Shown here: piece by piece, positions 16,252-27,148 of the stretch
How positions within the stretch are numbered: position 1 is the stretch's first letter
Layout: every line of letters begins with the position of its first letter
IMG/VR virus record: IMGVR_UViG_3300020577_004340
Coordinates: 59,976 to 123,975 of that record
Strand: one strand, 5' to 3'
Source of the DNA: a virus
Lineage: Duplodnaviria; Caudoviricetes
Length of the DNA stretch: 64,000 nt
The notes under the pieces: generated by a model
What the model was told of the DNA's origin: nothing
Seen by the model: the letters and a program-made list of their open reading frames with translations, nothing else
The model's database searches: none
Position numbers and translations under genes: made by a program

Positions 16252-17484
16252 ATGAATAAAAAATTTATTTATTTTCCATCATTCTCTGCAGGGGAAATGG
16301 GTGGTGGTTTAAGCAAAAACACAATACTACGAAATGATCTACCATCGAGATTTTATTCAACCGATTTTCCAGAAAAATACCGACATCCGTATTTTTTAAC
16401 TACTGCTGGCCATTTTTATAAGAAAAAAAATTTTAAAACTACTTGGGGATTTACTGATAATCCTGATGTTCTGTTATTAGGCGATTCAGGAGGATATCAA
16501 ATTGCTGCTGGGACTATTAAATGGGATAAAAATATTGTCCCAGTTATATTAGATTGGTTGGAATGTAATTCACATATTGCAATGAATTTGGATATACCCC
16601 CTAGATTAAAATATGTTGATAAATTTGATGAATGTTTAGATATTAGCATTCAAAATTTTAAATACTTTTCCGAAAATAGATCTGGGCAAACTAAATTTTT
16701 AAATGTTTTGCAAGGAAATTCAGACGTATCATATGATAAATGGTATAATAATGTTAAATCATTTGATTTTGATGGGTGGGGTATTGGAGGATGCGGTGGA
16801 TCATTGTATCGATTTATGGCAGGAATAATGGTGTTATTAGAAGGTAAAGAACATTATAATGTCAACAATAAATATTTACATATATTAGGAACTAGTAAAA
16901 TTATAGATTTTTTGATTCTATCTCAATTACAAAAATCATTAGATAAATGTAACTCAAAAATACAAGTAACTACTGACTCGTCAACGCCAAGTCGTGCTAC
17001 TGTTTTTGGTATGTTTTATAATGACGCTAATTTAAGAAGGGGGTCTTTTTCATCAATACATTTTCCAAAAGAAAGAGGTGATTCAATTAAAAATAAGAGT
17101 GTACATTCAACAAATTCATTACGTGATAGTGTAAGTTTAATGCCTGAAATTATTGAATTTGATACTCTCTTGCAAGGGGCATATACCCAAGATGATTTAA
17201 TTAATTGGACTAGTGAAGCATATATATCTTTAGTATTGCATAATTTCATGTTCTTCAATTCTATTATTGATAAAATTAATATGTATGTTGATGGGCATCC
17301 GTATATTCTTGAACAAGTTATAAATCCTGATTCATTTCTCATATTAAAATCAATTGACGAGATGGTGCTGGCGTATGAAAATGGAACTACTCCTCGAAAA
17401 GTTTTTGATTCATATAAACAATTGTATTATAAATTGTCAAACACTAATATCCCGACTACTACTATTCAACATTCATTTTTTTAA
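16252..17484 (+). CDS. dpdA: TGT-fold DNA-guanine transglycosylase-like protein (DpdA family)
   Basis: LGDSGGYQ, MNLDIPP, NVLQG, GWGIGG, HILG, TTDSSTP; inside the folE/que cluster. Confidence 0.8.
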   Translation: MNKKFIYFPSFSAGEMGGGLSKNTILRNDLPSRFYSTDFPEKYRHPYFLTTAGHFYKKKNFKTTWGFTDNPDVLLLGDSGGYQIAAGTIKWDKNIVPVILDWLECNSHIAMNLDIPPRLKYVDKFDECLDISIQNFKYFSENRSGQTKFLNVLQGNSDVSYDKWYNNVKSFDFDGWGIGGCGGSLYRFMAGIMVLLEGKEHYNVNNKYLHILGTSKIIDFLILSQLQKSLDKCNSKIQVTTDSSTPSRATVFGMFYNDANLRRGSFSSIHFPKERGDSIKNKSVHSTNSLRDSVSLMPEIIEFDTLLQGAYTQDDLINWTSEAYISLVLHNFMFFNSIIDKINMYVDGHPYILEQVINPDSFLILKSIDEMVLAYENGTTPRKVFDSYKQLYYKLSNTNIPTTTIQHSFF

Positions 17485-17493
17485 AATAATTTA

Positions 17494-19590
17494 ATGTATC
17501 AAAATATATATTTCGATAAATTCCAAAATGAAATCCATATTTGGGATGACAAGACGGGGTATGACCGAGTTAAATTCAAAAATTATGCTTATTTATTAAA
17601 TGATACTGGAGATTACACTACAATTGATGGGGCAAGATGTAATAAGGTATATAGTTGGTCTGAAACTGCTGTTAAAACTAAAATGGTATGTGAACATGAT
17701 GTTCCGGAGACAACTAGATATTTAATTGATAGATATGGAGATTCAGATGCCGTTTCTGATAATGTAATTACAATGTTCTTTGACATTGAGGTAGCTAAAG
17801 AGGGAAAATATAGTACGCCAGAAGATGCAAACAATACAATTACATCAATTGCATATTATACTGAATTGCATGGTTACCATACATTGTTATTGGATAAACA
17901 TAATCCACCTAGAACATACACAACGATAATTAAACCAGATAAAAAAGAACTTAGTATAGAGGTTAAAACATTTAATGATGAAAAATCATTATTGTTTGCT
18001 TTTTTAAAGGAATACCGAAATATTAGCCCCCATATATTAACTGGTTGGAATATTGATTACTATGATATTCCTTATTTATACAACAGAATGATAAATGTTT
18101 TGGATGTTCAATATGCCAATCAATTATCACCTATAAATAAAGTCAGAGTAAAGAAATATGACAATAACAATATAATTCAAATTGCAGGGGTTACCGCATT
18201 AGATTACTTGATGTTGTATAAGAAATTTACTTATGCGGAGCAATCTAATTATAGATTAAATACAATATCTAATATAGAGCTTAAACGTTCTAAAATAGAA
18301 TATACAGGGGATTTAGATTATTTATATTCAACTGATATTAATAAATTTATCGAATATAATGTTGTCGACGTTGATTTAGTATTGGAACTAGATAGAAAAT
18401 TAGATTTAATTAATATAGCTAGGGGTATATGCCATAAAGGACATGTGTCATACGATGATATCGTTTTTACTAGTAAATATCTGGATGGTGCAGCATTGAC
18501 ATATTGTCGTAGAAACAATTTAATTGCAACCAGTACCAGAACAAGTGGAGAATCAACAACTGCTGAAGGGGCATATGTAAAAGACCCAACGCCTGGGTTG
18601 TATAAATGGGTATATGATTTGGATTTAACATCATTATATCCAATGAATATTATTAGTCTAAATATTTCACCTGAGACTAAATTCGCAAAAATATTAAATT
18701 GGGATGAAGAGGATTATGTTAATTCCCCTAATAAATTGTATAATATTAAATTATTCCGAGATGATACTGTTTTAGGAAATTTTAGTAATGAATTTGGAGT
18801 AAAAAGCGATTCAGTTAGAATATCTGGTAGCCAAGCTTTGTTGGAATTTGTTAAAAAACATAATTTATCAATTGCATCCAATGGAGTGATGTACACATTA
18901 GATAAGATTGGATTGATACCAGCAATATTAGATACTTGGTTTGCTGATAGAGATGATTTTAAAAATTTACGAAAGCAATATGAAAAGTCGGGTGATTTAG
19001 TCTTGGCTGCATATTATGATAAGCAGCAATTAATTACTAAAATTATGTTGAACTCTTTTTATGGGGTGTTATTGCTTGAATCATTTAGAGTTTATGACAT
19101 AGACAGCGGCGAAGCGGTTACAATTACTGGAAAATCGGTAATTAAATGGGGAAGTAAAATGGCTAATTATTTCTATAATAAAAAGTTAGGAAATGAACAT
19201 ATTACAGATTATACTATATATATTGATACGGATTCGGTAGCGGGTGATTCAAACATTATAGTTAACGGGGATACCCCCAGAACGTTAGATGATGTATTTG
19301 CAGATTCAATTAAAAATTCGTATTTTGTAGACTCCAATCATAGAGAATTTACATTTCCATCAATTAAATTGCCATATTATGATGAATCTACAAAATCAGT
19401 TAAATTAGGAGATGTTGAATATATTGAGCGCCATTACATAAAAAAGCGAAGATACAAAATTACACTAAAATCTGGAAAGCATATAGTAGTGACCGAAGAT
19501 CATAGTGTTATGGTGGAATTGGATAATGGGGAGTTGGTACAAAAATTGACTAAAGATCTAACAATATCCGATAAAGTAATTTCTATTTAA
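17494..19590 (+). CDS. Family B DNA polymerase N-terminal precursor (N-extein plus split-intein N-half)
   Basis: ExoI FFDIE, ExoII GWNIDYYDIPY, motif A DLTSLYP, motif B KIMLNSFYG, ends at YIDTD followed by intein sequence. Confidence 0.93.
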   Translation: MYQNIYFDKFQNEIHIWDDKTGYDRVKFKNYAYLLNDTGDYTTIDGARCNKVYSWSETAVKTKMVCEHDVPETTRYLIDRYGDSDAVSDNVITMFFDIEVAKEGKYSTPEDANNTITSIAYYTELHGYHTLLLDKHNPPRTYTTIIKPDKKELSIEVKTFNDEKSLLFAFLKEYRNISPHILTGWNIDYYDIPYLYNRMINVLDVQYANQLSPINKVRVKKYDNNNIIQIAGVTALDYLMLYKKFTYAEQSNYRLNTISNIELKRSKIEYTGDLDYLYSTDINKFIEYNVVDVDLVLELDRKLDLINIARGICHKGHVSYDDIVFTSKYLDGAALTYCRRNNLIATSTRTSGESTTAEGAYVKDPTPGLYKWVYDLDLTSLYPMNIISLNISPETKFAKILNWDEEDYVNSPNKLYNIKLFRDDTVLGNFSNEFGVKSDSVRISGSQALLEFVKKHNLSIASNGVMYTLDKIGLIPAILDTWFADRDDFKNLRKQYEKSGDLVLAAYYDKQQLITKIMLNSFYGVLLLESFRVYDIDSGEAVTITGKSVIKWGSKMANYFYNKKLGNEHITDYTIYIDTDSVAGDSNIIVNGDTPRTLDDVFADSIKNSYFVDSNHREFTFPSIKLPYYDESTKSVKLGDVEYIERHYIKKRRYKITLKSGKHIVVTEDHSVMVELDNGELVQKLTKDLTISDKVISI
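19234..19587 (+). mobile_element. Split intein N-half (118 aa, Ser1)
   Basis: Starts SVAGDS directly after YIDTD; block B VVTEDHS; ends DLTISDKVISI-stop; contains no Cys. Confidence 0.88.
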
Positions 19591-19591
19591 A

Positions 19592-19693
19592 CAACATCCA
19601 GATATCGAGGATGTTCTTATAATATGGGAAAGTGATTTTAGAAACAACAAAACTGAAACAATTAAAAAATGTCTAGAATTTATAAACCAGTAA
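19592..19693 (+). pseudogene. Relic C-terminus of a Vsr/DUF559-like endonuclease gene
   Basis: Alternate frame reads QHPDIEDVLIIWESDFRNNKTETIKKCLEFINQ-stop with no start codon; overlaps the intein-C start. Confidence 0.6.
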
Positions 19694-19806
19694 CAGATGA
19701 AATTTCTTCAATCGAAGAGTTGCCATTGGAAGATGTGTATATGTATGACATTGGGATGAAAGATAGTCCCCACACCTTTTTTGCCAATAATATATTGGTA
19801 CACAAC
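19669..19806 (+). mobile_element. Split intein C-half (46 aa)
   Basis: Block F YMYDIGM..PHTFFAN and terminal VHN with Ser+1. Confidence 0.88.
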
Positions 19807-20622
19807 AGTTTATTTTTACCAATACTTCCATTATTAAATGATGTTAATATTGAAGAGTTAACAGATACAGAATTAATTGAATTGGCTAAACCATTAGTTA
19901 AAGAAGTTCAAGAATTTATAAATACATCATACACACCATATGCGAAGAAATTCCATATGATAGATACTCACCGTTGGGACATTAAACAAGAATTAATTGC
20001 TAGACGAGCCTTTTGGATTACAAAGAAAAGGTATGCTCAATGGATAGTTGTTAAAGAAGGATTTCCCATAGAAAAATTGGATGTGAAGGGTTTGGACGTA
20101 GTTAGATCATCATTTCCAACAGCATTTAGAAATTTATTAAAACAAGTTTTAATTGACATTTTACATGATAAATCTAAAAAAGATTTAGATATATTATTGT
20201 TAAATTTCAAAAAAACAGTTAATACCACTGAATTAAATAACATTTTATTCCCTACAGGTGCAAAGGAAATTAAAAAATATGAAACTGGTGTTATAGGTAG
20301 AGTTAAATCTGGAACTCCAGCACATATCAAATCTGCTATTAATTATAACCATTTAATGGATTTGTTTAATATTGTAGATATACCAAAAATATCAGATGGG
20401 GATAAAATATTATGGGGATATTTACACAATAATCCGTATAATTTCGAATCTTTAGCTATAACTGGTAATTTCGATGATGAAAAGATTATTGAATTTATGG
20501 AGAAATATGTAGATAAAAATAAAATATTTGAATCAGGACTGTTAAAAAAACTTCAGGCATATTGGGATGCTATGGGATGGGGAAAAATTACATTTAATTC
20601 CAATGTTAATAAATTTTTCTAG
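19669..20622 (+). CDS. Family B DNA polymerase C-terminal precursor (split-intein C-half plus C-extein)
   Basis: Intein end FFANNILVHN then SLF; KKRYA, VKGLDVVRSS. Confidence 0.93.
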   Translation: MSRIYKPVTDEISSIEELPLEDVYMYDIGMKDSPHTFFANNILVHNSLFLPILPLLNDVNIEELTDTELIELAKPLVKEVQEFINTSYTPYAKKFHMIDTHRWDIKQELIARRAFWITKKRYAQWIVVKEGFPIEKLDVKGLDVVRSSFPTAFRNLLKQVLIDILHDKSKKDLDILLLNFKKTVNTTELNNILFPTGAKEIKKYETGVIGRVKSGTPAHIKSAINYNHLMDLFNIVDIPKISDGDKILWGYLHNNPYNFESLAITGNFDDEKIIEFMEKYVDKNKIFESGLLKKLQAYWDAMGWGKITFNSNVNKFF

Positions 20623-20630
20623 AAAATAAA

Positions 20631-20662
20631 TTTGGAAAAGTGAAATAATATTCGTATATTAG
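20631..20662 (+). promoter_or_regulatory. Bacteroidota-type promoter (variant -7 box)
   Basis: TTTG-N20-TATATTAG upstream of the clamp gene. Confidence 0.6.
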
Positions 20663-20683
20663 TTAATAAACAATAATAAAAAA

Positions 20684-21397
20684 ATGGAAAAGAAAAAACT
20701 TATTAATTTTATCAATAAATATCATTTAGGCGGAACAGTTAATGCCGTGAAAATTAAGAGTAAAGGCGACAAATTATTAACAACATTCACCACAGATTCG
20801 AGAACAATTCTTGGATTCGTAGCAACTAGTGGAATTCCATTTGATGAATGTGAATTGGGGGTGTATAATACACCACTGTTATTGAAATTGTTAAATGCAA
20901 TGGATACTGAAATTGAATTAACACCAATCATTGAAAGAAGTAAATATACTGGTTTAAATTTAAAAGACAAAAGTCTTAAAGCAACGTTTATCCTTTCTGA
21001 TTTGGATGTAATACCAGATGCACCTGAATTACAGAATTTACCGACAACTACTTTCGAAACAAATATAACTCCAGAATTTATTTCAAGATTTGCATCAGCA
21101 AAAGCCGCATTATCAGATGCTAAGACGGTGAGTTTTGTTCAACAAGGTAATGAGATTCATTTGATTATTAATTATGAGGATTTTAATTCAGACAGGATAG
21201 CGATAGACTTGGGTATTGAATATTCCAATCCATTAATGCCACTGAAATTCGATTCAGATGCCTTTTTATCTATAATTAATGCAAATAAAGATTGTACTTC
21301 TGGAAAGATGTTAGTTAGTGAAGAGGGGTTACTTACCTTAACATTTACTGGTGATGGTTTCCAAACCAAGTATCTTTTAGTAATGTTAAGTAAATAA
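20684..21397 (+). CDS. Sliding clamp (gp45/PCNA-like)
   Basis: 237 aa, LGVYNTPLLLKLL and C-terminal VSEEGLLTLTF..YLLV pattern; position after PolB. Confidence 0.65.
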   Translation: MEKKKLINFINKYHLGGTVNAVKIKSKGDKLLTTFTTDSRTILGFVATSGIPFDECELGVYNTPLLLKLLNAMDTEIELTPIIERSKYTGLNLKDKSLKATFILSDLDVIPDAPELQNLPTTTFETNITPEFISRFASAKAALSDAKTVSFVQQGNEIHLIINYEDFNSDRIAIDLGIEYSNPLMPLKFDSDAFLSIINANKDCTSGKMLVSEEGLLTLTFTGDGFQTKYLLVMLSK

Positions 21398-21564
21398 TTA
21401 AATAATGACTGAATTAATAAGAATTGACGAAATATTAGCTGAAGCATCATCATATTTTATCAGAGGAGAGGTGACTGTTTTAGCTACTGTATTTAAATTG
21501 ATACACCCACATAAATCTAATAGTGAGTGTTATAATGATGCTTTTTTATATTTAATAAATTTGT

Positions 21565-22107
21565 ATGGAATATAAGAAATTATTGAGTGAAAATGAAATT
21601 GACACTATTGTAGACAGTTTAGCTTTCTATTTATCGAGGGATTATTTAGATGAAACCAATCAATATTTATTTGTCAATGTATTAGATGGAGGCACTCCTT
21701 TTTTTAATTTATTGTATGATAAATTAGATAACACACGGTTTAAATTAATTCCAGATTCTGTAAAATGTAAATCATATACTGGTGTGAATACAACGGGTTG
21801 GAAATTAATACAACCGATTCATAATACCGATGAAACAATTAAGAAAGTTATAATAGTTGATGACATTCTAGATAGTGGACTTACATTATATAATTTAACA
21901 GATTATTTTATGGAATTAGGATTTAACGAAATAATTTGTGTTACACTATTGGAAAAAGATGTACTTAATAAAACATATCATCCTGTCCCCAAATATATAT
22001 CGGGTCATTACATAAATGACATTTGGGTTTGTGGTTTTGGTATGGATTCAATAGATGGAACCCGCAGGGATGCGAGAGAAATATATCAAATATTAATGTT
22101 AATATAA
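21565..22107 (+). CDS. Hypoxanthine-guanine phosphoribosyltransferase-like
   Basis: VLDGG, KSY, VIIVDDILDSGLT, LLEK, WVCGFGMD. Confidence 0.85.
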   Translation: MEYKKLLSENEIDTIVDSLAFYLSRDYLDETNQYLFVNVLDGGTPFFNLLYDKLDNTRFKLIPDSVKCKSYTGVNTTGWKLIQPIHNTDETIKKVIIVDDILDSGLTLYNLTDYFMELGFNEIICVTLLEKDVLNKTYHPVPKYISGHYINDIWVCGFGMDSIDGTRRDAREIYQILMLI

Positions 22108-22451: not shown

Positions 22452-23265
22452 ATGGGAAAAAAACAGTATATTACTAGAAAAGGGAATTTTGATTCGGGGC
22501 ATCGTGTTATGAACGAACGTCTTAAATGTTTTCATGTCCATTTTTAATTGATGGTGGACACTAAATTGGGTGAATTGCTGGAACGCTAAGTTATTTAATA
22601 TGCCAATCAGCAGCCAAGACTAACTTAGGTTTAAAGAGTTAGTAAGGTTCAGAGACTAGGAAGTGAGCCTAACAATATTCTTCCCACGAGCGCCCAACAC
22701 TTATTAATAGGTGATGATATAGTCCGAACTTATAAGAAATTATAAGAAGTGAATGATAAAGAACTTTCACGATAACATTTTGGGTCATACGTATTTGTAT
22801 CAATTAACTTTTTCCTTTAATTCCATGGAAGAAATTGGTTATGCAATTGATTTTAAAGAAATCAAAAGAGTAATGTGTCAATGGATAGACGATTATTTAG
22901 ATCACGGTATAATTTTAAATCCACATGATTCAGTATTAATATCAGCTGCTGCAGAGTTAGGCAGTAAAATGTGGTTAATGTCCCTAAATGGGATTGGCGA
23001 ATATTGTAACCCATCAGTAGAGAATATCGCTAAAGAAGTGTGCATTGCAATTGATACTTTGACGAGACTTTTATATGCCAAATCCTCTACTAAATTAACT
23101 TTACATAAAGTTAAAATATATGAAACACCTAATTGTTTTACTACAATTAAAAGAGAAGATATACCTAAAAGTGAAGTGAATAATTTTTTAGATAAAAACA
23201 TGCAATTTCTTGTTGATTATGCTAAAGAAAAGGGTGTTGTTCAATACGATGATAGAAAATTGTAA
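22452..23265 (+). CDS. queD: 6-carboxytetrahydropterin synthase, spliced (exons 22452-22541 and 22783-23265; 190 aa)
   Basis: Joined exons give FDSGHRV..KCFHVH|GHTY (CxxxHGH), IDFKEIK, LDHG, NPSVENIA, YETP. Confidence 0.88.
22542..22782 (+). ncRNA. Group I intron (IA-like, ORF-less, 241 nt) in queD
   Basis: P GAATTGCTGGAA, Q AATCAGCAG, R GTTCAGAGACTA, S GATATAGTCC; P3 TTGGGTG/CGCCCAA; P7 GACTA/TAGTC; P1 TGTCCAT/GTGGACA with U.G at the splice site; terminal G. Confidence 0.92.
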
Positions 23266-23501: not shown

Positions 23502-24546
23502 GAGAATATATATCTTCGATAATTCAACTTCTGGACTAAGATATAATATTCAATGGAGTAAGTTTATTCCAGATGAATTACAATCTTGGGGTTATGAAGT
23601 TCAGGTTATAAGTGGCCTTGAATTAAATTACCATAAGTTGGGTTATCGAGGAAATATATTAAATAGTGGCGCCCTAATAACTAATTTAGGGAATCTATTA
23701 TTGGAAAGTAATTTAACTGAAAAAAGTATTTTTATATTCCCTGAAGCAAGAAATCCAATGGTCATTTATCTTAATGAATTACGTCAAATGTATGATTTAG
23801 ATATTACAATTATTGGGTGGTGGAATGACCATACATTCAATACCGATGGGAATATACGAAAACAATTTTCCAGAAGAAAACGAGATTGGACGGTTAAAGT
23901 TGATAGAGCCTTAATGTCGGCATATGATTATAATATGTGTTACACAGATCGACAATATAAGGTATTAAGTTACAACAACCGCCATGAAAAGAATATATAT
24001 AAATGTTGTTTGCCATTATCGAGTATCAATGGAGAAAATGTAGATAGATTGTTAGGATATGATTATACAAAGGAAGACAGAATTATCATTAATACTAATT
24101 TTAACAATCGTTATGACCCTGATTTTATAAAGACATTACAGTTATTATATAAAGATTATGAATTTCATGTAGTACACGAACAGAATTTAACATATAAAGA
24201 ATATTATCAGATTGTACGTAAGAGTAAACTTTGTATTAATGTTAATCAGACTGATACTACACCTTGGTCAATTTATGAAAATTTAGTTTTAGGAGCAATT
24301 CCAATACTACCTGCCACTGAATTATACACACATATATTTTCAGAAAAACAATGTTTATTTTTTAAAAAACACTTGATGAAAAAACCTTATATTAAATACA
24401 TGAGAAACACTGAACATATTACAGAATATGTTAAACGTTTATTAACCGATTATGACGATATGTATGCGCAATTGGATATTCAAAGCATCCATGACGCATA
24501 TTTCAATTCAAACGATTTAAAACAGATTTTAAATGAGCTTAAATAG
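23494..24546 (+). CDS. Divergent GT-B glycosyltransferase-like protein
   Basis: Collinear with 15249-16235 (RY..., LTYKEYY, LGAIPILP) but HAGS and ExxxxxxxE motifs are altered. Confidence 0.55.
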   Translation: MSKRIYIFDNSTSGLRYNIQWSKFIPDELQSWGYEVQVISGLELNYHKLGYRGNILNSGALITNLGNLLLESNLTEKSIFIFPEARNPMVIYLNELRQMYDLDITIIGWWNDHTFNTDGNIRKQFSRRKRDWTVKVDRALMSAYDYNMCYTDRQYKVLSYNNRHEKNIYKCCLPLSSINGENVDRLLGYDYTKEDRIIINTNFNNRYDPDFIKTLQLLYKDYEFHVVHEQNLTYKEYYQIVRKSKLCINVNQTDTTPWSIYENLVLGAIPILPATELYTHIFSEKQCLFFKKHLMKKPYIKYMRNTEHITEYVKRLLTDYDDMYAQLDIQSIHDAYFNSNDLKQILNELK

Positions 24547-25165
24547 AAACATTGAAAATACCTTATGGGTAGAAAAATACAGACCAAAAACAATGGACGA
24601 TTATGTTGGTAATCAATCGATAATCGATACTATTAAAACGTATATTGAGAATGATGATATTCCAAATCTATTATTATATGGTAGTGCAGGAACTGGTAAG
24701 ACAACGTTGGGAAAAATCGTAACTAATACACTTGATTGTGATTGTCTATATATAAATGCGTCCGATGAAAATAATATTGATACTGTTCGAGATAAGATTA
24801 AATCATTTGTTAGCTCAATTGGTTTTAAGAAATGGAAATTGGTATTTTTAGACGAATGTTTAGAAGCGGGTACATTAGTTCGTATCTTGAGAAATGGGGG
24901 TGAAATATCCATACCAATTGAAGATTTGGACCCAATTAATGATTTAGTTAAATCATTTAATGTTGATACAAAATGTATTGAGTGGGTTCCGTTTACATTG
25001 TATTACAAAGATATACAGAATATTTGGGAAATTGAATTAGAGAATGGATTTATTATTAGATGTACAGATGACCATAAATGGTATGTATTAGATGACGTTG
25101 GAGAGACGATAGTAGTAAAAACGATTGATTTACATAAATATGACCATATATTAAGTCCAAAGTAA
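24533..25165 (+). CDS. Clamp loader (RFC/gp44-like) N-terminal precursor plus split-intein N-half
   Basis: LWVEKYRP, GSAGTGKTT, INASD, LVFLDE followed by intein CLEAGT. Confidence 0.92.
   Translation: MSLNRNIENTLWVEKYRPKTMDDYVGNQSIIDTIKTYIENDDIPNLLLYGSAGTGKTTLGKIVTNTLDCDCLYINASDENNIDTVRDKIKSFVSSIGFKKWKLVFLDECLEAGTLVRILRNGGEISIPIEDLDPINDLVKSFNVDTKCIEWVPFTLYYKDIQNIWEIELENGFIIRCTDDHKWYVLDDVGETIVVKTIDLHKYDHILSPK
24857..25162 (+). mobile_element. Split intein N-half (102 aa, Cys1)
   Basis: CLEAGTLV start; block B IRCTDDHKW. Confidence 0.88.
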
Positions 25166-25206
25166 TACATATAAATTTAAAAACATGTTGTATATGTGGT
25201 GTTGGT

Positions 25207-26445
25207 ATGACTAAAAATCATTTACGTCGGCATAACATATCTAGACGGGAGTATTATGATTTATATGTAAAGAGTGATACTGAAGGTATTTGTAATGGGT
25301 GTGGAATACCAACACAATTCATTAGCTGTACCTTTGGATATATAAATAATTGTATATTATGTTCTAACCGTTTAATAGGAAAAAACAAAGCGGATACAAA
25401 TAAAAAGAAATTAATAAAATGTACATGTAAAATATGTAATACAGAATTTTTAAATAAAATTTTTAGAAATATATGTACTAGTCGTAAATGTCGAATATAC
25501 ATTCAAACATGTCCAATAGATGATTATACAAAGGTATCGTTCATTGAATATATGAGTTGCCCATATTGTAATAAAAAATTTAATAAGTTATCCGGTTTCA
25601 AAACTCATTTACGTACTCATTTTTCGTTCGAACGCGTGCCTGAGATTCTACAATATATTGGAATGTCCGTTTGGAAAACGGCTATACCAAAATGTAAATA
25701 TTGTAATAATTTATTTATTGAAAAATATTCCGATAAATTCTACAATTCAGTTGGACAATGTTGTCCGGAGTGTTTTGAGTCCAAGATATGGTTATCTAAT
25801 GAATTTCGTGACAGAAAGGCGATAGGTAAAAAAATTGGGGAAACTAGAAAAATTACCAATAAAACTGAAAGAGGTAAAGCTATTCTGAAGAGAGTTGGCG
25901 AAATAAATTCCAAGAAAATGCAGTTATATTTAAAAACTGATATTGGTAAAGAATCTATGTTATTACGTGCGAAGAAGAATTCAATTAAGATGAAGAAGAA
26001 TATTGCAAATGGCAAATTCACTCCATGTATTACAAATTCTTGGACACATTGGAAATCACAGATAATTTTAGAAGACGGTACAATTAAAAAATTTAGAAGT
26101 AGTTGGGAAGCATGTGTATGGAATAGTAATAGGCATTTGGAGTATGAAACAATTAGGATACCATATCAATACAATGAAGACACTAAAAATTATGTTGCTG
26201 ATTTTTACGACAAAGAAACCAATACTATATATGAAATAAAACCAAAAAAGACTTGGGATAAAGTTCATACTAAAATGGAACAGGTGATATTTTATTGTTC
26301 AGAAAAAAAGATTAATTTTATTTGGATAAATGAAGATAATATATTATCTTATATAAACACTTTAGATTTTGAAGGTGAGAATTTAACACAATTAAATAAA
26401 TTATACAATGGAATTACAACAAATAAAAATAAAAACAATAACTAA
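25207..26445 (+). CDS. Free-standing putative homing endonuclease (zinc fingers plus TnsA-like PD-(D/E)XK domain)
   Basis: Multiple CxxC/C2H2 motifs; FRSSWE, YETIRIPY, YVADF, IYEIKP; inserted between intein halves in a different frame. Confidence 0.75.
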   Translation: MTKNHLRRHNISRREYYDLYVKSDTEGICNGCGIPTQFISCTFGYINNCILCSNRLIGKNKADTNKKKLIKCTCKICNTEFLNKIFRNICTSRKCRIYIQTCPIDDYTKVSFIEYMSCPYCNKKFNKLSGFKTHLRTHFSFERVPEILQYIGMSVWKTAIPKCKYCNNLFIEKYSDKFYNSVGQCCPECFESKIWLSNEFRDRKAIGKKIGETRKITNKTERGKAILKRVGEINSKKMQLYLKTDIGKESMLLRAKKNSIKMKKNIANGKFTPCITNSWTHWKSQIILEDGTIKKFRSSWEACVWNSNRHLEYETIRIPYQYNEDTKNYVADFYDKETNTIYEIKPKKTWDKVHTKMEQVIFYCSEKKINFIWINEDNILSYINTLDFEGENLTQLNKLYNGITTNKNKNNN

Positions 26446-27148
26446 TACACAAACAAGTTCGCCTGTTTATGATTTAACTGTTCCGTCGAATCATAATTTT
26501 TTTATTGGAGAGTCGGGGGACATATTAACCCACAATTGTGATTATTTGACGACCAATGCCCAATCAGCATTAAGAAATTTAATAGAAACATTTTCTAAGA
26601 ATTCACGTTTCATTTTAACATGTAATTATGTCGAAAAGATATTAGACCCTATACAAAGTCGGTGCACAGCATTTCAAATTCATCCCCCGACACAACAAGA
26701 TATCGCAAAAAGATTGTTTACAATATGTAAGGCAGAAGATATTAAATGTGAATTACCAGATATAGTAACAATTGTTAAAAAGACGTATCCAGATATTAGA
26801 AGATCTATAATGTCATTGCAACAGCAAAGTATTTCAGGTGAATTGAAATTGAATAATGATTTGTTGTTGGAAACTGGCTATCTTGGATTAATATTGACTG
26901 AACTATGTAATATTAAAGACCCGAAGACAACATACAAAAATATACGAAAGATAATTGCCGATTCTAAAGTTAGAACATTTGAATCTTTATACAGATTTTT
27001 ATATGATAATTTAGATTCTTACAGTAAAGCAAACCAAGCAAACATTATATTAATAATTGCAAGATATCAATATCAAGATTCGTTCGTTGTTGACAAGGAG
27101 ATAAATGTAATGGCAATGCTACTAGAAATATTTTCGGAACTAAAATAA
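26408..27148 (+). CDS. Clamp loader C-terminal precursor (43-aa split-intein C-half at 26408-26536 plus C-extein)
   Basis: VYDLTV..NHNFF..ILTHN|CDYLT.NAQSALR, FILTCNY, IQSRC, DIRR. Confidence 0.92.
   Translation: MELQQIKIKTITNTQTSSPVYDLTVPSNHNFFIGESGDILTHNCDYLTTNAQSALRNLIETFSKNSRFILTCNYVEKILDPIQSRCTAFQIHPPTQQDIAKRLFTICKAEDIKCELPDIVTIVKKTYPDIRRSIMSLQQQSISGELKLNNDLLLETGYLGLILTELCNIKDPKTTYKNIRKIIADSKVRTFESLYRFLYDNLDSYSKANQANIILIIARYQYQDSFVVDKEINVMAMLLEIFSELK

Follow-up and report, generated by a model that had tools for sequence, protein, structure and literature searches.

A phage family B DNA polymerase predicted to be made as two polypeptides and rejoined at motif C by a cysteine-free split intein, with the remnant of an endonuclease gene between the halves

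How a single DNA polymerase could be made from two separate genes is the question raised by positions 17494 to 20622 of a 64,000-nucleotide (nt) stretch of DNA from the record of an uncultured T4-like phage (hereafter the window, to which coordinates refer unless another contig is named), where two adjacent open reading frames (ORFs) each encode part of a family B DNA polymerase (PolB). Among cultured phages, the closest PolB is that of Microcystis phage Mel-JY01 (39.5% identity), followed by those of T4-like cyanophages at approximately 30%, and a blastn search of the locus against cultured phages gave 137 nt of Mel-JY01 as its sole match. In the IMG/VR viral record that contains the window (123,975 bp, 29.7% GC, 66% complete), no PolB match other than this split gene was found. 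As set out below, we consider it highly probable that the polymerase is made as two polypeptides that are rejoined by a Cys-free split intein of the Aes123/CP21 type, and that the spacer between the two genes is the remnant of a deleted endonuclease gene.

ORF1 (17494..19590; 698 amino acids [aa]) consists of a 580-aa N-extein followed by a 118-aa N-terminal intein half (IntN), and ORF2 (19669..20622; 317 aa) of a 46-aa C-terminal intein half (IntC) followed by Ser+1 and the remainder of PolB. IntN opens with S-V-A-G-D-S (intein block A with Ser1) and holds E-R-H and T-E-D-H, while IntC ends in FFANNILVHN and is followed by S-L-F-L-P; the Cys count is zero in IntN, in IntC and in the C-extein. 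An initial annotation made from the sequence had read ORF1 as PolB up to YIDTD plus a 118-aa IntN (Ser1, TEDH), ORF2 as a 46-aa IntC ending in LVHN and followed by Ser, and both intein halves as lacking Cys, and the ORF list and residue counts agree with it throughout. The two ORFs share one reading frame, and the 26 codons between them include TAA, TGA, TAG, TGA and TAA; these five in-frame stops in 78 nt exclude a single sequencing error as well as readthrough, which had been discounted from the start on the same grounds. The intein assignment of both halves also held in a profile comparison, as Pfam Intein_splicing (PF14890) matched the halves taken singly at 31 and 14.6 bits and, when they were read through the stops, jointly at 49.7 bits, over the curated cut-off. 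The last 58 residues of IntN carry a net charge of +2 and IntC one of -5, a charge segregation known from other natural split inteins (PMC11923092).

The last 69 residues of the N-extein align to residues 556-623 of RB69 gp43, with YIDTD placed over YGDTD (619-623), and the C-extein aligns to residues 700-886 of the same protein. In approximately 70 of the 80 closest IMG/VR PolB loci (38-46% identity), N-extein residue 580 abuts C-extein residue 1 in the same frame and at adjacent coordinates. Because the exteins abut in a single ORF of these approximately 70 related contigs, the junction is placed, by alignment, exactly at DTD/S of motif C (the slash marking the junction), which corresponds to D623/S624 of RB69 gp43. 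Excision of the 118 and 46 intein residues is accordingly predicted to restore a normal, collinear polymerase of 851 aa. Both the proposal that rejoining would rebuild YIDTD-SLF as PolB motif C and the expected agreement of the spliced protein with intein-free PolB are borne out by these alignments. We take D621 and D623 of RB69 gp43 to be the metal ligands of motif C, which would put the intein directly after the second catalytic Asp.

The DTD/S intein was absent from all 80 nearest IMG/VR PolB loci, and its distribution within its own polymerase clade is thus sporadic. The closest PolB relative, at 5560-6200 of L005 (L-numbers denote related viral contigs or assemblies; 46% identity), has no recognisable intein and is yet broken just upstream of motif C: its ORF falls approximately 8 aligned residues short and ends in 40 aa of unrelated sequence, and approximately 330 nt further on HIIYVDT and DSIFVS are found in two different frames. 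This break could be an intein-less fracture or a frameshift error. A separate observation concerns six matches to an IntN search (P0029, P0038, P0039, P0053, P0062 and P0068), which read LVHN-TD-SV, i.e., the end of one intein, two extein residues and the start of the DTD/S intein. Such a reading implies that in these homologues two putative inteins are inserted two residues apart inside motif C (D/TD/S).

We infer trans-splicing activity of the pair from the sequence conservation of its catalytic residues. All sequence hallmarks of a class 1 intein are present (S581, T667-E-D-H670, IntC D27/H35, H45-N46 and S47), as is the canonical layout of a naturally split intein, with 118 and 46 aa in separate translation units divided at the endonuclease-insertion position. 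Among 18 split PolB-N/IntN homologues, no variation was seen at S581, H647, D669 or H670 and T667 was conserved in at least 90%, and among 15 IntC/PolB-C homologues Y26, D27, H35, H45, N46 and S47 (Ser+1) of IntC are invariant, although the proteins of these sets are otherwise only 29-54% identical. The initial claim of a Cys-less Ser1/Ser+1 chemistry at a phage PolB site is thus matched by residues conserved in split homologues. Between the window and the 97.5%-identical allele of L088, the intein halves differ by 10 synonymous and 2 non-synonymous codons and the exteins by 46 and 16, respectively; these numbers are small and are consistent with purifying selection. Moreover, a model of the complex between ORF1 residues 574-698 and IntC residues 1-54 gave an interaction prediction score from aligned errors (ipSAE) of 0.77, as compared to 0.00 for the best of 3 controls, a value that, as like complexes have already been solved, indicates likeness to known inteins rather than binding. 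A mark of 0.77 was reached by 58 of 80 solved complexes and by 2 of 110 mismatched pairs. The model runs share at least 88% of contacts (partner predicted local distance difference test score at least 74) and contain long antiparallel strand contacts, with 654-658 against IntC 12-16; here too, the pass may reflect memory of similar solved structures.

In the mechanism that we propose, a gp43-like PolB would be made as PolB(1-580)-IntN and IntC-PolB(581-851) from two adjacent genes on the same strand, whose co-transcription is probable. The acidic IntC would bind the basic C-terminal lobe of IntN, and together the halves would fold into a class-1 HINT domain. Ser1 would then undergo an N-O acyl shift, Ser+1 would take over the N-extein by transesterification, and cyclisation of IntC Asn46 would release the intein, so that the chemistry would proceed through oxyesters only. 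The resulting peptide bond between D580 and Ser would rebuild motif C (YIDTD-SLF). Inteins of this family normally have a Vsr-like free-standing homing endonuclease gene between their halves, which the window allele lost when 969 nt were deleted at a TTAA microhomology.

The evidence for the lost gene comes from relatives of the window. In L085 and L086, whose IntN is 49-52% identical to that of the window, a gene of 339-361 aa lies between the halves and overlaps or abuts the start of the IntC gene. When the whole 64-kb window was searched by tblastn with the L085 endonuclease, a match was found within 19589-19693 in frame +2 (E = 1e-7; 50% identity over 32 aa). Phages Aes508 (E = 2e-49) and PTm1 (E = 5e-32) have genes in the equivalent position that share 33-36% identity with the intact intervening gene; that of Aes508 carries a VSR endonuclease domain note, and that of PTm1 is annotated as a VSR endonuclease. 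The intact intervening gene also matches phrog_22677, and gave nothing in a Pfam search or in a phmmer search of PDB. Its EFNGDYWH motif is one that we judge to be Vsr-like. As classified by these matches, the intervening gene is a putative Vsr-like free-standing homing endonuclease gene.

Two further sequencing runs yielded contigs (L092 and L095; 98% nucleotide identity) with an intact 339-aa endonuclease gene and an identical ORF2 protein. Relative to L092, the window lacks 969 nt (L092 1955-2923); the ends of the deletion share TTAA, the junction lies at the TTAA of window 19587-19590, and the retained nucleotides that were compared match the 3' end of the intact L092 gene exactly. Overall, an intact endonuclease gene between the halves was found in L092, L095, L085, L086 and L104, with the L102 contig beginning inside the gene; the window itself does not have the intact endonuclease that marks a fractured gene and holds only a 34-codon 3' stump. 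From these alignments, the spacer is evidently the 3' stump of a deleted endonuclease gene and more than non-coding filler. As the deleted allele occurs in lineages that have since diverged by 2.5% (L088), it is not ephemeral. In L103, a more distant relative, a 67-aa ORF at 3325-3528 matches the last 63 residues of the endonuclease (51% identity, E = 3e-23); this ORF is flanked by a 772-aa PolB-N/IntN gene and by the IntC gene, whose start it overlaps. The L103 truncation is independent of the deletion in the window. Because both deletions stopped short of the endonuclease 3' end that overlaps the IntC start, this end presumably survives as the carrier of the translation-initiation region of the IntC gene, i.e., the stump may have been co-opted for IntC initiation.

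As the window derives from a metagenomic viral contig, it could be argued that the split is an assembly or sequencing artefact, or that the phage is defective and the locus a pseudogene in decay, the true gene having a contiguous intein or none. However, contigs from seven other sequencing runs (L088-L091, L093, L094 and L096) align to the locus without gaps at 97.5-100% identity; five of these span all 3129 nt, two are cut at a contig end, and the spacer is present in all seven. Records from other samples also include an ORF2 protein without any difference and an ORF1 protein of 98% identity. Since the arrangement recurs in seven independent assemblies, it is not an assembly artefact, and the possibility of assembly error, raised beforehand, is contradicted. 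The five in-frame stops, dozens of diverged homologues that stop at the same intein position and the purifying pattern of substitutions likewise speak against an artefact or pseudogene, which we regard as extremely improbable. Joining of the two ORFs at the RNA level, by a self-splicing intron or by recoding in the spacer, would yield a cis-splicing mini-intein; the shared reading frame would allow for it, and the gp43 gene of Aes508 does have a group I intron elsewhere. On the other hand, no group I or II intron would fit into 78 nt, the spacer is accounted for as coding sequence of the deleted endonuclease gene, and homologues with an intact 1-kb gene between the halves must splice in trans. 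No Rfam family was found at E <= 1 in 17000-21500, and an intron in the spacer was dropped as a candidate. An RNA-level explanation is therefore, in our judgment, extremely improbable.

It is also conceivable that the intein halves no longer splice and serve merely as a module for non-covalent dimerisation of the two polymerase fragments, comparable to the intein-less split gp43A/B of some Aeromonas phages. T4-like phages with a split gp43 that is not spliced do occur (cited in PMC2677866), the gp43 of Aes508 is broken a further time, as gp43A/B, and L005 is broken near the same place. Nevertheless, every catalytic position (Ser1, the NX His, the block B His, the block F Asp and His, the final His-Asn and Ser+1) is invariant across diverged split homologues, with the block B Thr nearly so; the predominance of synonymous differences between alleles suggests that the chemistry, and not binding alone, is under selection; and an unspliced 164-aa domain between D580 and Ser+1 would sit inside the metal-binding motif C. 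Loss of splicing is thus very unlikely. Several points weigh against our reading of the locus as a polymerase rejoined by a split intein: the spliced 851-aa product is so far a prediction, splicing efficiency varies widely in this family, with wild-type Aes123 reaching only approximately 30% in vitro (PMC11923092), and promoter and terminator signals in 19300-19900 did not rise above those of shuffled sequence. ORF2 also lacks a visible Shine-Dalgarno sequence, so that our account of its expression is an inference. In addition, with 66% of the record complete there is room for a second polymerase. The initial conclusion that phage replication depends on the intein nevertheless agrees with the record as it stands, where the only PolB needs rejoining.

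With regard to family membership, the best PDB match of IntN is 9HTH, the Aes123 PolB1 intein (E = 5.6e-7), and those of IntC are 8CPO/8CPN, the PolB16 intein (4e-8), followed by 9HTH (1.8e-3). The known Cys-independent Ser1/Ser+1 split inteins at the DTD/S site of PolB from T4-like phages or metagenomes are Aes123 PolB1 (120/39 aa), CP21 PolB1 (115/39), LCGC14 PolB2 (120/42), GOM-OPS-1 PolB2 (120/46) and the atypically split PolB16 (PMC11923092, PMC12707363, PMC10189870). Motif NX (K/R-H), reported as specific to Ser1 inteins (PMC10189870), is present in the window as R646-H647. In an exhaustive HMMER search with IntN, 471 representatives of 50% identity clusters passed E <= 1e-3, 55 of them also E <= 1e-10. 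Among the best 150, IntN forms the C-terminus of at least 94, which are accordingly split where the window intein is, and the DTD/S junction is seen in at least 64. For the 70 representatives with a clear DTD/S junction and a complete IntN, IntN measures 111-132 aa (median 120) and is Cys-free in 14, or approximately one in five, which makes the predicted Cys-free state a minority one, though not unique. By tblastn, the element was also found in cultured phages of Aeromonas (Aes123, Aes508 and AS-gz), Campylobacter (CP21 and F379), Tenacibaculum (PTm1/PTm5) and Salicola (SCTP-2), in Pseudomonas PA5oct-like phages and in Lak phages (30-38% identity). These data place the window intein, by sequence, in the characterised family of Aes123, CP21, LCGC14 and GOM-OPS-1, as a new sequence of a known kind. 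Its initial description as a new natural Cys-free split intein stands for the sequence, which is at most 56% identical to any representative of the 50% clusters, but not for the kind, PolB16 and the four inteins just named having already been characterised. Similarly, "rare" is apt among characterised inteins but not in metagenomes, where the 471 cluster matches show the element to be common.

Other genes of the same phage are also fractured. A gp44/RFC-like clamp-loader large subunit at 24533-27148 is split at Walker B (FLDE/C) by a Cys1/Cys+1 split intein (Table 1). Outside the window (L004, G000:C1:24725-27853, 13-2151), the terminase large subunit ends in IASQE/CVSGDT with a 33-aa IntN, followed by a 299-aa ORF and then by an ORF that opens with a 114-aa IntC ending in ILSHN/CDCDF; this atypically split 33/114 intein resembles the AceL/GOS TerL type.

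Table 1. Coordinates of the split polymerase locus and of the fractured clamp-loader gene in the window
Feature	Position	Strand	Description
PolB N-extein, 580 aa	17494..19233	+	Exonuclease domain and polymerase domain up to motif C, ends YIDTD; Pfam DNA_pol_B_exo1 3.9e-23, DNA_pol_B 2.2e-22
IntN, 118 aa, no Cys	19234..19587	+	Ser1 = ORF1 S581; motif NX R646-H647; block B T667-E-D669-H670; stop codon 19588-19590
Putative endonuclease gene remnant, last 34 codons and stop, frame +2	19589..19693	+	Fills the 78-nt spacer (19591-19668), overlaps IntC gene start by 25 nt
IntC, 46 aa, no Cys	19669..19806	+	Block F Y26-D27 and H35; block G H45-N46
PolB C-extein, 271 aa and stop	19807..20622	+	Begins with Ser+1 (SLFLP), last residue of motif C; palm and thumb
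Clamp-loader N part and IntN	24533-25165		Ends LDE/C intein start
Intact 412-aa zinc-finger and endonuclease-like ORF	25207-26445		Between clamp-loader halves; phrog_15427 'endonuclease'
Clamp-loader IntC and C part	26408-27148		IntC ends ILTHN/CDYLT

Upstream of PolB, a 410-aa ORF (16252-17484) without a Pfam or PHROG match contains a GDSGGYQ motif, which to us recalls tRNA-guanine transglycosylase/DpdA. The ORF at 22753-23265 is a PTPS (QueD-like) gene in the identical contig L090, the ORF at 21565-22107 encodes a phosphoribosyltransferase, and the relative L085 has a QueC/GATase gene near PolB. These genes suggest a 7-deazaguanine (queuosine-precursor) pathway in the PolB neighbourhood. Among the starts of 28 window genes, almost none had an upstream Shine-Dalgarno-like sequence, and the leaders were A/T-rich. 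This scarcity may point to a Bacteroidota host, for example, or to one from some other lineage in which initiation is independent of Shine-Dalgarno sequences.

Only a handful of Cys-independent split inteins have been characterised (Aes123/CL/CLm, CP21, LCGC14, GOM-OPS-1 and PolB16), and further efficient, mutually orthogonal ones are sought for multi-segment labelling as well as for ligation reactions that tolerate oxidising conditions (PMC12707363). The window pair is natively Cys-free and shares less than 40% identity with the Aes123 IntN over the alignable part, and its natural homologue sets could guide engineering. If the above is correct, the phage would host three split inteins, the 118/46 pair included, among which cross-reaction must be avoided. 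The paired alleles with and without the endonuclease provide a clean natural example of the loss step proposed by the fractured-gene model, and a second lineage independently retained a stump of this kind. For annotation, the lesson is that two such ORFs represent one polymerase and not a pseudogene. Specialists would not be surprised by the locus, but it adds a useful pair to the candidates for Cys-less intein tools, and it illustrates neatly how an endonuclease is lost. A more far-reaching combination, which we advance tentatively and with somewhat more doubt than confidence, is that the homing-endonuclease life cycle is captured here at the population level, with plus and minus alleles coexisting in approximately 98% identical phages, that the stump has been co-opted for IntC initiation, and that the 118/46 pair would make an efficient ligation tool orthogonal to CLm and LCGC14.

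Among known systems, Aes123 PolB1 of the Aeromonas T4-like phages Aes123/Aes508 (engineered into CL and CLm; PDB 9HTH) shares with the window a gp43-type PolB, the DTD/S site, Ser1/Ser+1 and the lack of Cys, a canonical split at the endonuclease-insertion position (120/39 as compared to 118/46 aa), and the K/R-H motif NX, the T-x-D-H block B and the HN end; moreover, the Aes508 endonuclease is homologous to the intact intervening gene (2e-49). Soluble aggregation of the IntN precursor is a known limitation of Aes123. Conversely, the BLASTP alignment of the two covers no more than 57 residues of IntN (39% identity) and 33 of IntC (48%), the window IntC is 7 aa longer, the host phage of Aes123 is only distantly related to the environmental window phage (29.7% GC), and Aes508 has an intact endonuclease gene that lies between the halves and overlaps both, whereas that of the window is cut to 34 codons. 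The CP21 IntN is approximately 36% identical to that of the window and is of the same Cys-independent Ser1/Ser+1 type at DTD/S. LCGC14 and GOM-OPS-1 were compared by eye from the text of the published supplement. Like the window, GOM-OPS-1 has a 46-aa IntC and is a Cys-independent Ser1/Ser+1 intein at DTD/S; its ORFs are 47 nt apart by the accession coordinates in the supplement, which indicates that the adjacent arrangement without an endonuclease has a precedent. The natural LCGC14 and GOM IntN each hold one non-catalytic Cys, mutated for use (supplement), whereas the window pair is Cys-free by nature. PolB16 OarG (PMC10189870; PDB 8CPN/8CPO), the best PDB match for IntC, shares the DTD/S site, Ser1/Ser+1 and the NX histidine with the window; it is, however, split after 15 aa (15/168), off the canonical site, and natively has two Cys. 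Finally, fractured genes, in which a split intein is combined with a free-standing and often Vsr-like homing endonuclease gene (Dassa et al. 2009, PMC2677866), have their exact counterpart in the sister strain L092 and the relatives L085, L086 and L104, and also in the clamp-loader and terminase genes of the window phage. As compared to such a gene, the window allele represents loss of the endonuclease, the next step in the model of PMC2677866, with a datable stump and a coexisting intact allele.

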